The position numbers and the translations under genes are program-made. A model generated the notes under the pieces. It worked only from the letters and a program-made list of their open reading frames with translations, did not search any database and had not been told where the DNA came from. From IMG/VR virus record IMGVR_UViG_3300031951_000008: a stretch of DNA of 64,000 bases. One strand, given 5' to 3'. Within the stretch, counting starts at the first letter, position 1, and every line of letters begins with the position of its first letter. The DNA comes from a virus (Duplodnaviria; Caudoviricetes). Positions 429 through 43,504 of this stretch are shown here, piece by piece.

Positions 429-1013
429 ATGCCTGGGTTCAAAATACCATTAAACGATTACACTGATAAGTGCAATGATGCAGGCAATGCGATTATAGCT
501 GCTACGGGGCCTTCTCATACCAGAGAGACGGCACGTTCCTACAGATATGAAGTTAGCTTACGTCTGATAAAATCGTTGAATAAGTCCCAGGAGATAAGCT
601 TATTTGCTAAAACATGCCAAAGGCCCTCACCCGAATTTGATGAGATAACTATACATCATAAGCACGAAGAGATTTATAGGCCTGGAAAGATAAGATGGAA
701 CCCTATCGATATCGTGTTTTACGAAGCACTAGATACCGATTCTGGAACCGACTTGACCGCTCAGACTATATATGATTGGTGGTCTAAATCGATATATAAT
801 GTAAGCACTCAAAGGCAGGTGACTGTGAGAGAAATATACGAAAACAACTGTACAATATCGATGCAAAATGGGGCAGGCACGATATGCTGGAAGTACAACC
901 TATATAATGCTTGGCCCCGAAAGATATCAGCCAAAGACTGCGATTATACTGGCTCAGACATATCTGAAATAAGCGTGAACGTAAAATATAATAAAGCAAC
1001 AGAAGAGAAATAA
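429..1013 (+). CDS. Tail tube-like protein, paralog 2
   Basis: gp19-like motifs: YRPGKIRWNPIDIVFY, IYDWW, WKYNLYNAWP, DCDYTGSDISEISVNVKYNKA. Confidence 0.75.
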   Translation: MPGFKIPLNDYTDKCNDAGNAIIAATGPSHTRETARSYRYEVSLRLIKSLNKSQEISLFAKTCQRPSPEFDEITIHHKHEEIYRPGKIRWNPIDIVFYEALDTDSGTDLTAQTIYDWWSKSIYNVSTQRQVTVREIYENNCTISMQNGAGTICWKYNLYNAWPRKISAKDCDYTGSDISEISVNVKYNKATEEK

Positions 1014-1015
1014 AT

Positions 1016-1567
1016 ATGGGTGGATTTGCAATAGCCAATGGTGTAACCGGGTTTACAGTAAGCCCTAATAATACTAGGCAGAACGTAGATCCAAATGTCG
1101 AGTTATATCATACTTATACTTGGGAGCTTTTCCAGATATTAGATGAGCCAACTGCACGCAGACAGCAGCTGATAGTTCTAAAGGACGCTACAACACCGAC
1201 TTTCACAGTCAATAAAGAGACATATGTAGCTGCAAGCGTAGAGTATAAGTTCGCGAAGAGTGTCACTTGGGACGATATCAAATTGTCATGGTATGATACT
1301 GTAGGTATGTTCGATTATTTGATGAAGTGGAGATCTAGTGTTTGGGACCCTAAGGTAGGTCTGTCGTCTGCAGAATACTACAAGAAGAAGACTGTACTTA
1401 GGTGCTTTACTCCAGACGAAGACAATTATTATGGTTGGAGCCTAGTTAACAGCTGGCCATCGACTATCAGATATGGAGACCTTACTTACGCCAGCAGTGA
1501 TGCAAAATTGGTAGAAGTGACATTATCATATGATTGGGCCGAAGAATTTAAGGGAACTGGTACATAA
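1016..1567 (+). CDS. Tail tube-like protein, paralog 3
   Basis: KFAKSVTWDDIKLSWYD, WSLVNSWP, GDLTYASSDAKLVEVTLSYDWA. Confidence 0.75.
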   Translation: MGGFAIANGVTGFTVSPNNTRQNVDPNVELYHTYTWELFQILDEPTARRQQLIVLKDATTPTFTVNKETYVAASVEYKFAKSVTWDDIKLSWYDTVGMFDYLMKWRSSVWDPKVGLSSAEYYKKKTVLRCFTPDEDNYYGWSLVNSWPSTIRYGDLTYASSDAKLVEVTLSYDWAEEFKGTGT

Positions 1568-1613: not shown

Positions 1614-2612
1614 ATGACGAAAAACGATGATGAAAATCTGTTAGGCACAAGTACACCTGAGCATGTTGATGTGCAGATGCAGCAAAAAAAGCATAGCATC
1701 ATCGATAAGACAGAAGGATTGTCGAACAGAGATTTGCTCGAAACATATATGAACGCCCCGGAAGATAAACTCCTTCCGTGGGAAGATGTTAGACTTCCGA
1801 GTGATGGCATTTATTACGGTTGGATAGATGGGACTGTTAAAGTTAGGCCGATGGGCACGGCTGCAGAAAAGGTATTGACCAACCAAAGACTCGCACAAGA
1901 TGGTCAGAATATTGACTACTTGTTTAGAGAATGCGTAATGCTCCAAAACGGCATGGACCCAGCGGACCTGCTGATCGGCGATAGGGCATTCTTGTTATAC
2001 TATATTCGCGGTTTGACGCATGGTAATATATATGAGTTCATGTTTACTTGCCCTAACGAAAGCTGTGGAAAATCAACCACATACAATTATGACCTGAACG
2101 CATTAGCTGACACTATCAAGTGGGCAAATCATAGCTTGGGTGCTGAGCCTTTCAAAATCGATTTGCCCTATGCTTCGCAGATACTTAGCCATAACGTATC
2201 GGTAGAGATAAGATTTTTAAGGGCTGTAGACACCAACAACATGATCGCCATGCGTAAAGCAAGGAAGAACATGTTTTCGCAGGGGTTGGTAAGGAACAGA
2301 ACACAGAATAAAGCTCAAGGTAACTTCAGCCGCACGCAAGATGCTGAAGACATGATCACCGATAATTTGGCTCGCATGATAGTTAGCGTGCTGGGTGAGA
2401 CCGATGAGTTTACAATCAAAAGATTCGTAGAAAAGATGCACGCTAGTGACACAGCGACTATCAGAGAATGGCTACGCGAGAACACACCCGGCATTGATAA
2501 TACTGTTATTATTACTTGCCCGTCATGCAATAATGATTTCACAGTAGAGCTTCCGATGACCGAAGGCTTTTTTCGCCCGGCAAAGTCCGGAACAATACGA
2601 AAACCAACGTAA
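1614..2612 (+). CDS. T4 gp26-like baseplate hub / tail assembly chaperone
   Basis: LPSDGIYY, VRPMGTAAEKVLT, LLIGDRAFLLYYIRGLTHG, two CxxC-type motifs (CPNESC, CPSC), and a C-terminal LPMTEGFFRP, all typical of this family. Confidence 0.7.
   Translation: MTKNDDENLLGTSTPEHVDVQMQQKKHSIIDKTEGLSNRDLLETYMNAPEDKLLPWEDVRLPSDGIYYGWIDGTVKVRPMGTAAEKVLTNQRLAQDGQNIDYLFRECVMLQNGMDPADLLIGDRAFLLYYIRGLTHGNIYEFMFTCPNESCGKSTTYNYDLNALADTIKWANHSLGAEPFKIDLPYASQILSHNVSVEIRFLRAVDTNNMIAMRKARKNMFSQGLVRNRTQNKAQGNFSRTQDAEDMITDNLARMIVSVLGETDEFTIKRFVEKMHASDTATIREWLRENTPGIDNTVIITCPSCNNDFTVELPMTEGFFRPAKSGTIRKPT
2565..2576 (+). other. Candidate +1 programmed ribosomal frameshift site GGC_TTT_TTT_CGC
   Basis: The +1 frame is open from 2560 to 2805 and joins the downstream ORF in frame. 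UUU_CGN is a known +1 shift motif. Confidence 0.6.
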
Positions 2613-2619
2613 AGCCTTA

Positions 2620-2805
2620 ATGGAGCAGGAGTATATATTAAAGAGAGAAGCAGGGCTTTCTCTGTTCGAAATAGCTTTTATGTCTGCAGAAGATAGATTA
2701 TGGTGGTTGCGACGGATTAAGGAGGATCGCGAGAAGGAAAAAGACGCGGCCAAGACTAGTCAAAACACGCCTAGAATGCCGTCCGTTCCTAGAATCCGAC
2801 GTTAA
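2620..2805 (+). CDS. Small tail chaperone C-terminal partner, probably translated as a frameshift extension from 2575
   Basis: EQEYIL...SLFEIAFMSAEDRLWWLRRI resembles the short ORFs that follow gp26-like chaperones. The frame is open 60 nt upstream of the ATG. Confidence 0.65.
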   Translation: MEQEYILKREAGLSLFEIAFMSAEDRLWWLRRIKEDREKEKDAAKTSQNTPRMPSVPRIRR

Positions 2806-3742: not shown

Positions 3743-4909
3743 ATGCCAAATTATGATCAGTTCAAAGACAAGCTTAAATCGACTTATAGGCGACTGCCTG
3801 TTAGTAAGATAGAAGCTTGGATTAAAAAAAACTTTCGAGACGAGTTTAAAACCCGTAAAAATGGCACAGAATATATTATTTGTAATCCTTTCAACGGAGA
3901 TACCGGGTTCCATTTTAATATAAACCCCGAAAAGAATAAGTGTCACGATTGGAGAGGCAATGAGTGGGCAGGCCCAATCAACCCTGCAACTAATAGTAGG
4001 AATTGCTCTTTTGTCAAATTCGTTCGTCTTTTTAAGAAGTGTTCGTACTCTGAAGCCATAAAAGACATTATGGGCGAAGAGGTCGACATCCGGGAATATC
4101 TTAAGCCAGAATCGAGAATCACAGACACAGATTCTAAGTTATACTTTAATGTTGAGCTACCAAAAGGCACAGAGCCATTAGTGCTACATAAGTCAGATAT
4201 GCAAGCTAAAATATTGATAAAATGGCTCAAGAGCAGAGGATATACGGACCAGACTATAGAAAAAAGCGACTTAAGATTTATGGGCATGGACGTATACTGG
4301 CCTTATTTTGAATTCGATACTTTGGTATACTGGCAAAGCAGATCTCGATTAAATAAAGTATTTAACTTCCCATCGTTAGACGTTTATGAAAACAATAAGT
4401 TGATTGGTCATCTTAAGGCCACCAAAGGAGACTACTTCTATGGGTTCGATGACGTAGATCAGGCCTCTTATTTAATAATCACGGAGGCTATATTCGATAA
4501 AAACACCATAGGGCAGCAGGCACTAGCTTCTGGAGGTGCCGTCTTGACTTCAACGCAGGTTAAGAAATTAAAGCTGTTAAGCCCAATTAAAGGTATTATC
4601 TTGTCTCCCGATGCCGACGAAGCTGGCCTTACTAGTATAATTAGCAATGCGGAGTTATTAGAGCGAGCTGGCTATAAACTATATTATAGTATACCGCCTG
4701 ACATGAAGTATAAAAATGAAAACGGAATCGAGGTAAGCGTCAAAGATTGGAACGAGCTTGGTCAATTTGTAGTAGGGTTTGATGATGTAAGGAAGCATCA
4801 CGACAAGCTAATTAAGCCTTTGAACACACAAGCTAAAATTGACATACAACTTAGAGTAGCAGAAATGAAGGAACGTAAGCGTAGACAAGCCATTCCTAAG
4901 TCATTCTGA
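3743..4909 (+). CDS. DNA primase (DnaG-like: Zn-binding domain plus TOPRIM)
   Basis: N-terminal CNPF...H...CHDW Zn-finger-like segment; YWQSR; TOPRIM motifs IITEAIFD, SGG, LSPDADEAG, KDWNE. Confidence 0.85.
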   Translation: MPNYDQFKDKLKSTYRRLPVSKIEAWIKKNFRDEFKTRKNGTEYIICNPFNGDTGFHFNINPEKNKCHDWRGNEWAGPINPATNSRNCSFVKFVRLFKKCSYSEAIKDIMGEEVDIREYLKPESRITDTDSKLYFNVELPKGTEPLVLHKSDMQAKILIKWLKSRGYTDQTIEKSDLRFMGMDVYWPYFEFDTLVYWQSRSRLNKVFNFPSLDVYENNKLIGHLKATKGDYFYGFDDVDQASYLIITEAIFDKNTIGQQALASGGAVLTSTQVKKLKLLSPIKGIILSPDADEAGLTSIISNAELLERAGYKLYYSIPPDMKYKNENGIEVSVKDWNELGQFVVGFDDVRKHHDKLIKPLNTQAKIDIQLRVAEMKERKRRQAIPKSF

Positions 4910-43254: not shown

Positions 43255-43342
43255 AGGAATACTGTGTAGATACAAGGCTGAGTCAGTTCAACGGTTCGAA
43301 GACCTGACAAGACGGCCATCAGCAAAATCGCGGTATTCAGTA

Positions 43343-43413
43343 AGGGTCGTAGCTCAGACGGCAGAGCGGAGAATATATTTCTCAGGACGATGGTTCGACT
43401 CCATCCGATCTTT
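43343..43413 (+). pseudogene. tRNA-like element with a 5-nt anticodon loop
   Basis: Acceptor AGGGTCG/CGATCTT, D arm GCTC-AGACGGCA-GAGC, anticodon stem GAGAA/TTCTC with loop TATAT, T arm GATGG-TTCGACT-CCATC. Confidence 0.75.
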
Positions 43414-43419
43414 GTAATA

Positions 43420-43504
43420 GGGGCTGTGGCGGAACAGGCATACGCAACAGACTTAAAATTTGTCGGGAGTTAATCCCATGTGGGTTCGAATCCCATCAGC
43501 CCCA
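43420..43504 (+). tRNA. tRNA-Leu(UAA)
   Basis: Acceptor GGGGCTG/CAGCCCC, discriminator A, anticodon arm ACAGA-CTTAAAA-TTTGT, long variable arm GGGA/TCCC, T arm GTGGG-TTCGAAT-CCCAT; CCA not encoded. Confidence 0.93.

Follow-up and report, generated by a model that had tools for sequence, protein, structure and literature searches.

How can a phage gene that stops in its own reading frame be continued in the next one? The question is raised by a gene near the start of a 64,000-nucleotide stretch of viral DNA (Duplodnaviria; Caudoviricetes; IMG/VR record IMGVR_UViG_3300031951_000008), referred to below as the window. The gene encodes a 332-amino-acid (aa) protein of the T4 gp26/gp51 family and is followed, in the +1 frame, by an open reading frame (ORF) of 61 aa. 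Comparison with related loci makes it very probable that this giant freshwater phage makes a gp26-type and a gp51-type tail-assembly protein from this one gene, through a +1 slip of the ribosome at UUU_CGC. The elements of the locus and the predicted products are as follows.

1614..2612 (+): zero-frame gene, gp26-type short isoform; 332 aa with a PF12322 domain, two CxxC pairs and the C-terminal end ...ELPMTEGFFRPAKSGTIRKPT
2557..2559 (+): TGA, upstream limit of the open +1 frame
2568..2576 (+): putative shift site TTT TTT CGC; P-site UUU at 2571-2573, re-pairing on UUC at 2572-2574
2575..2805 (+): +1-frame extension, predicted gp51-type C-terminal domain; 76 codons plus stop
2610..2612 (+): zero-frame stop TAA, end of the short isoform
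2620..2622 (+): ATG of the 61-aa ORF, the start that a gene caller would choose
2803-2805 (+): +1-frame stop TAA

Within the ORF at 1614-2612 the codons GAA GGC TTT TTT CGC stand in frame at 2562-2576. From 2560 as far as the TAA at 2803-2805 the +1 frame has no stop, and it takes in the 61-aa ORF that begins at ATG 2620. The original prediction had described these codons, this open frame and product lengths of 332 and 396 aa, and the sequence agrees with it. Since the TGA at 2557-2559 closes the +1 frame upstream, any shift is confined to positions 2560-2612. Skipping of C2574, so that TTTC is read as one step, would yield a 396-aa product ...EGFF-ARQSPEQYENQRKALMEQEYIL...PRIRR with the junction GFF-ARQSPEQY, and the predicted +1 junction peptide is GFF-ARQSPEQYENQR. 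The extension peptide has a helical core (...ALMEQEYILK..GLSLFE..MSAEDRLWWLRRIKED) followed by a Pro/Arg-rich tail.

A DNA-level search of the locus against deposited phages gave no match, and relatives were found at the protein level only. Three public sources contain a copy of the 332-aa protein with 99% identity, on two contigs. The protein search returned 306 homologues, and none of the best 120 of these 306, with approximately 50-60% identity and lengths of 290-377 aa, covers the extension by an in-frame fusion. For the analysis of the gene end 80 loci were taken from IMG/VR, 75 of which reach the end of the gene; 62 of these are distinct (~37-60% protein identity). All 75 complete loci contain TTT or TTC followed by TTT CGN, and in all of them the zero frame stops 2-29 codons past this site while the +1 frame remains free of stops over 61-105 codons. 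The peptide encoded there is conserved, ..E(Y/F)(D/E)(R/K)..(Y/W)..LMEQQFQLK.YG.LSLFEQ..M.AE(D/E)R.WW.KR.., and is followed by a Pro/Ser/Arg-rich tail. In one of two near-identical contigs a short stretch of the extension differs, with MEREDRPVQKQASHLKYHRNFKH in L070 (3848-4042) and MEREYWHLQEQAFLLKYHCNFNL in L069 (1891-2085), a difference that resembles local indels or errors of sequencing in L070.

The codons of the site are conserved beyond what their amino acids require. The second Phe codon is TTT in 62/62 distinct loci (53% in the background of the same genes), the Arg codon is CGN in 62/62 (background 62%) and it is CGC in 48/62 (background 14%). Third-position identity reaches 0.91, 1.00 and 0.76 for Phe, Phe and Arg, as compared with 0.30-0.76 in the 30 codons upstream, and conservation at synonymous sites peaks at TTT TTT CGN. 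The codon before the shifting UUU is itself UUU in 56 of the 62 loci and UUC in the other 6. When the interval in which a shift is permitted, from the upstream +1 stop to the zero-frame stop, is determined for each locus, the intervals intersect in about eight codons centred on TTT TTT CGN. Between the usual zero-frame stop and the position of the Met codon the +1 frame has the periodicity of coding sequence (entropy 1.02/0.77/1.65 at codon positions 1-3), and stops occur here in the +1 frame of 0/49 loci, in the zero frame of 48/49 and in the -1 frame of 37/49. The original prediction had proposed to check in homologues whether TTT_CGN is kept and whether the +1 frame is free of stops from the slip site to the position of the ATG; the motif is kept and 0/49 loci have such a stop. 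Its probable +1 shift at UUU_CGC is strongly supported by the conserved site, by the frames and by +1 coding in related loci.

The zero-frame protein belongs to PF12322 (T4_baseplate, the T4 gp26/gp51 family), with 48.3 bits at a cut-off of 24.5 over residues 73-321 and profile positions 12-219, so the earlier label 'gp26-like' was right. It also matches positions 10-234 of the 282 positions of phrog_150 ('baseplate hub'), and the shifted product would extend this match to position 256. In an alignment of 26 homologues C146, C151, C302, C305, F319 and F320 are invariant, as is the motif ELPIT.xFFR at the C-termini, which end a few residues later. The second cysteine pair (CPxC) lines up with its counterpart in T4 gp26. 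Taken by itself, the 61-aa ORF has no match in Pfam or PHROGs, and sequence profiles of the PF12322 domain and of the extension find no solved relative.

In T4 the family is represented by gp26 (208 aa) and gp51 (249 aa), which are hub assembly chaperones. Both match PF12322 end to end, gp26 with residues 1-206 and gp51 with residues 1-201. In phrog_150, gp26 covers positions 14-235 and gp51 positions 13-280. From this coverage, gp51 is a gp26-like protein with about 48 additional C-terminal residues, and gp51 homologues carry the newer Pfam domain PF28602 in this extra part. The two T4 proteins share 20% identity over 161 residues. The extension peptides of the loci studied here most often match phrog_634, 'baseplate hub assembly catalyst' (7/42, best E 2.9e-4), and in hhalign the extension profile aligns with the 'gp51' of cyanophage P-SSM2 over 50 columns (probability 69%, E 4.5e-5). 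As the extension resembles the C-terminal domain of gp51, gp26 would be the counterpart of the zero-frame product and gp51 that of the shifted one, a link that the original prediction had missed. The short form ends just past the FF motif, as gp26 does, and the long form would carry a helical C-terminal domain of about 50 aa, as gp51 does. The difference is that T4 has two diverged paralogous genes and no recoding, whereas here a single gene would provide both forms. Copy number was judged from related IMG/VR contigs, and two near-complete relatives (408 kb and 354 kb) have one PF12322 gene each.

Elsewhere the long form is encoded without any shift. An exhaustive profile-free search found five distant relatives (P0181, P0188, P0198, P0204 and P0257; 21-27% identity) that have the PF12322 domain and the extension in a single ORF, and there are about 30 more such in-frame long forms beyond these five. 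P0181, P0204 and P0257 match phrog_150 up to about position 279 of 282. On two groundwater contigs the gene for P0181 (304 aa) lies directly 3' of a gene for a 273-aa PF12322 paralogue that ends in ..KLFWPNSDID, i.e. a short form. Genomes with an in-frame long form can thus also hold a separate short form. Comparison thus shows that the window's relatives have kept the site, the way the frames are arranged and the protein-coding nature of the extension, and that other phages encode the long form as a normal ORF next to a short paralogue. One groundwater phage contig with a short and a long PF12322 gene side by side (L091) also encodes, about 1 kb further downstream, a member of the Acb3 anti-defence family (PF25187; 3594-4295).

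The same arrangement is present at the end of PF12322 genes of cultured and complete phages, listed here with the gene-end site and the frame in which the extension is encoded.

Bacillus phage SP-15: TTT TTT CAC, extension in the +1 frame
Listeria phage LIS04: TTT TTT AGT, extension in the +1 frame
Bacillus phage HSE3: TTC TTT CGT, extension in the +1 frame
Streptococcus phage GXN1: TTC TTT CGT, extension in the +1 frame
Flavobacterium phage immuto: TTT CTT TGG, extension in the +1 frame
Microcystis phage Mel-JY01: TTT TTT TGG, extension in the +1 frame
Huge phage LR756508: TTT CTA, extension in the +1 frame
Xanthomonas phage Xoo-sp13: T7 run, extension in the -1 frame
Cyanophages P-SSM2 and Syn9: T_TTT_TTC, extension in the -1 frame

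The joined product is annotated in none of these phage records. In LIS04 a stretch without annotated genes (L088, 3736-3965), which separates the 'baseplate hub' gene from the tape measure gene, encodes the conserved gp51-type extension in the +1 frame, and so does the corresponding stretch in immuto (L087, 3715-3976), where only a 36-aa ORF is annotated. In Xoo-sp13 the -1 frame behind the T7 run (GCT TTT TTT ATT; L084, 3300-3555) contains a small ORF that is listed as a hypothetical protein in its own right. The mini 'gp51' annotated in the cyanophages (P-SSM2, L094, 2185-2372; Syn9, L095, 2188-2390) lies in the -1 frame of gp26, behind T_TTT_TTC at the end of gp26. The annotated ATG of Syn9 cuts off conserved residues. 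Cyanophage gp51 was described as having about 20% of the T4 length and matching the C-terminal region of T4 gp51 (Sullivan et al. 2010, PMC3037559). As in the window, a single PF12322 gene is followed by an ORF of about 50 aa that is homologous to the gp51 C-terminus and overlaps or abuts the gp26 end in another frame behind a T6C run; it differs in that the small ORF lies in the -1 frame, behind a classical heptamer, and is annotated as an independent gene. The arrangement in P-SSM2 and Syn9 is likely an unannotated -1 programmed frameshift, and no mention of frameshifting at cyanophage gp26/gp51 was found in the papers searched. Nor did open-access papers and preprints yield a description of a frameshift in gp26-family genes.

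Could the two frames simply be two ordinary genes, the gp26-like gene ending at 2612 and a 61-aa 'mini-gp51' being translated separately from ATG 2620? The window has an ATG here, 40 of the 58 loci analysed have one at the corresponding position, the records of P-SSM2 and Syn9 annotate a separate small gp51 gene, and a short gp51 has been reported for cyanophages (Sullivan et al. 2010, PMC3037559). This explanation is nevertheless improbable. Firstly, the +1 frame is coding and conserved for 15 codons 5' of the ATG, a stretch that offers no start codon. In Syn9, too, the annotated ATG comes only after the conserved LETYYESNFAL. Secondly, eight distinct loci (L011, L015, L023, L024, L041, L055, L057 and L062) have no ATG, GTG or TTG from the slip site to the conserved domain; in these the Met is replaced by Leu, and other loci have Gln or Arg at this position. 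Thirdly, a Shine-Dalgarno 4-mer precedes the ATG in 1/40 loci, as against 34/62 starts of the gp26-like gene, and ATG 2620 of the window has no GGAG, GAGG or AGGA upstream. Lastly, the synonymous TTT and the CGN at the shift site are fixed, and the same domain is fused in frame in distant relatives. Independent initiation at ATG 2620 thus seems unlikely, and this ATG is more likely an internal Met codon of the long isoform. The 61-aa ORF, the cyanophage 'gp51' mini-genes and the gaps in LIS04 and immuto are most likely the C-terminal domains of a recoded product.

If the extension is a continuation of the gp26-like protein, the +1 frame would be reached by the following route. Most ribosomes would decode TTT TTT CGC in frame and meet the stop 12 codons on, giving the 332-aa short (gp26-type) protein. 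A minority would pause with tRNA-Phe on UUU in the P site while the rare Arg codon CGC, which makes up 7% of the Arg codons in the window, waits in the empty A site. The tRNA-Phe would then re-pair one base forward on UUC, and translation would continue for 76 codons in the +1 frame to give the 396-aa long (gp51-type) protein. Re-pairing of tRNA-Phe from UUU to UUC is possible at almost all of the sites; the exceptions are LIS04 (TTT TTT AGT) and Mel-JY01 (TTT TTT TGG), where it would be from UUU to UUU. The short and long proteins would act like the gpG/gpGT pair of lambda in handling the tape measure and the hub, and would be absent from the virion. We infer that the shift is ribosomal and in the +1 direction, that its efficiency is low and that the pair acts in this lambda-like way.

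Sites of the type UUU_Ynn are prone to +1 shifting in bacteria, as in Yersinia YopN-TyeA, and the PA-X site of influenza A is UCC_UUU_CGU, without an evident stimulator (Atkins et al., PMC5009743). The proposal that the phage uses a 'PA-X-like' shift was fair as regards the motif, since UUU_CGN is present in 62/62 loci, although the bacterial UUU_Ynn +1 site is the closer precedent (PMC5009743). Like the PA-X and bacterial UUU_Y sites, the phage site would have a P-site tRNA-Phe that moves from UUU to UUC before a slowly decoded CGN, with no 3' RNA structure evident; that the shift occurs on tRNA-Phe itself is our reading of the motif. It differs from PA-X in that the ribosome is bacterial and the E-site codon is UUU or UUC instead of UCC, and from the known UUU_Y sites in that it is kept across a large phage clade for a function in structural assembly.

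Productive transcriptional slippage usually needs about eight or more A or T residues. Loss of one U by RNA polymerase on the T6 run, in a fraction of the mRNAs, is a rival to ribosomal shifting that has the uninterrupted T6 of 56/62 loci and the T7 of Mel-JY01 and Xoo-sp13 on its side. It is less probable still than separate translation of a mini-gp51: the run is broken as TTC TTT CGN in 6/62 loci, as TTC TTT CGT in HSE3 and GXN1, as TTT CTT TGG in immuto and as TTT CTA in LR756508, leaving three or four T's, which is too short for polymerase slippage, yet UUU_C is kept. Moreover, a fixed CGN after the run is accounted for by an effect in the A site and not by transcription.

An indel from assembly or sequencing as the cause of the frame break, or a gene that is broken in this genome, is effectively refuted by the comparative data: a T6 homopolymer is a classic spot for such errors, but the same break is present in 62 distinct loci from many metagenomes and in eight cultured or complete phage genomes, the best 120 of the 306 homologues include no fusion, and both frames are under purifying selection.

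A ribosomal +1 shift being the preferred explanation, the role of its products can be approached through gene order and fold. In LIS04, HSE3 and immuto the genes for the tail sheath and tail tube are followed by the PF12322 gene with its extension and then by an annotated tape measure gene. SP-15 and Mel-JY01 have the same layout, with the next large gene labelled 'putative tail protein' or 'hypothetical protein'. The slot between the tube and tape measure genes is the canonical place of G/GT chaperones. Confident AlphaFold models were obtained, with pLDDT 81 for the short form of the window and 90 for the in-frame relative P0181, whose extension forms helices at 243-257 and 264-268 and a long one at 272-302. 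In an exhaustive VIA-align search, the model of the short form retrieved HK97 2OB9, 3FGX and YqbN 3KLU at ranks 1-3 of 48,161 chains, and the P0181 model retrieved the same three structures at ranks 1, 7 and 49. These structures (HK97 gp13, Rbstp2171 and YqbN) are tail assembly chaperones (PMC9603447). For the window model the Z scores were 6.0 for 2OB9 (90 residues aligned), 5.5 for 3FGX and 5.1 for 3KLU, with 86-90 residues aligned overall; all of the chaperone matches thus lie at Z <8, which VIA-align rates as inconclusive, and the aligned ranges differ. Foldseek gave no match against the PDB at E <= 0.001. Still, the likeness is suggestive, as chance would hardly account for its recurrence in two models with 26% identity. 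Together, the gene order and the weak but repeated fold matches point to a role like that of lambda G/GT. The 'tail-chaperone pair' of the original prediction is backed by the gene order in cultured relatives, by the fold matches and by the literature on T4 gp26/gp51 (PMC3004832).

Besides the inconclusive Z scores, several points weigh against a recoded gp26/gp51 pair. The whole case for the frameshift is built on comparison. No conserved RNA structure was detected downstream of the site, where RNAalifold gives 0 pairs in 32 loci and the fold of the window is no better than that of shuffled sequences, and there is no consistent Shine-Dalgarno-like element upstream of it; for these reasons the efficiency of the shift may be low. 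On T6 sites a -2 shift may reach the same frame and would add one Phe at the junction, the predicted junctions being ...GFFARQSPEQYENQR for a +1 shift and GFFFARQ... for a -2 shift. The ATG at 2620 and in 40 loci may allow some independent initiation. As to the gp51-type identity of the extension, the hhalign alignment of its profile with T4 gp51 is colinear with residues 202-250 and weak (probability 6-16%), and the whole-protein profile of the clade aligns with the gp51 family in its N-terminal part only, and weakly. Finally, no tape measure gene was identified adjacent to the gene in the window's clade. The placement of the tape measure gene about 6 kb downstream could not be confirmed either, as the ORF at 8602-12273 matches no tape measure family in Pfam or PHROGs.

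Tail chaperone genes provide a textbook example of recoding by frameshifting, nearly always of the -1 type. The pair gpG/gpGT of lambda, and the conservation of the tail assembly chaperone frameshift among long-tailed phages, were described by Levin 1993 and Xu, Hendrix and Duda 2004, as summarized in PMC5009743. The gene in the window has the characteristics of this G/GT type of programmed frameshift: a short product would be accompanied by a rarer, C-terminally extended one through a shift close to the gene's 3' end. In cultured relatives the gene follows the tail tube gene and directly precedes the tape measure gene, neither T4 counterpart (gp26 or gp51) is a confirmed part of the virion, and the models have a weak fold similarity to the HK97 chaperone. 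It is unlike lambda in its predicted shift, which would be +1 at UUU_CGN instead of -1 at X_XXY_YYZ, in lacking an identified adjacent tape measure gene in the window's clade, and in the size of its PF12322 protein, which with about 250-330 aa and two zinc-ribbon-like CxxC pairs is much larger than gpG. A 'very likely +1' shift was reported for the tail chaperone of the Halorubrum myovirus HSTV-2 (PMC5009743), which likewise concerns the tail chaperone gene of a myovirus but one with an archaeal host. Judged from these comparisons, the finding is a variant of the known tail-chaperone frameshift, with a +1 shift at UUU_CGN in the gp26/gp51 family.

We lean, by a small margin, towards a wider proposal in which PF12322 is the G/GT-type chaperone family of T4-like phages, cyanophages and many jumbo myoviruses, and in which the short and long isoforms are made interchangeably by a +1 shift (UUU_C), a -1 shift (T_TTT_TTC or T7) or gene duplication (T4 genes 26 and 51; locus L090). 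If this is true, the long isoform is wrongly annotated in dozens of deposited phage genomes, where it figures as a tiny gene of its own or as a gap, and related phages would meet a single functional need by +1 recoding, -1 recoding or duplication. The T4 counterpart pair hints at a job for two long-puzzling proteins, gp26 and gp51. Regarding them as short and long versions of a single ancestral chaperone would make a fifty-year-old question of T4 hub assembly directly testable. In addition, a large and conserved clade of bacterial viruses with a +1 site UUU_CGN and no detectable stimulator would be a clean natural system for the study of +1 shifting on bacterial ribosomes.

The genes around the locus in the window include three consecutive tube paralogues upstream of the putative chaperone gene.

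2-358: gp19-like tail tube paralogue, partial (PF06841)
429..1013 (+): gp19-like tail tube paralogue (PF06841)
1016..1567 (+): gp19-like tail tube paralogue (PF06841), directly upstream of the PF12322 gene

In 49 distinct loci an ORF of about 180 aa (167-238 aa) ends just 5' of the PF12322 gene, its gp19-like identity being established for the copy in the window only. On the 3' side the next genes in the window are an unknown 285-aa ORF and then a Toprim/primase-like gene (phrog_47, 3743-4909), which lies about 1 kb downstream and breaks a tail module that is contiguous in other myoviruses. Further along the window, ARAGORN predicts two adjacent tRNAs at 43342-43504, a tRNA-Tyr with the unusual anticodon ATA and a tRNA-Leu(TAA).

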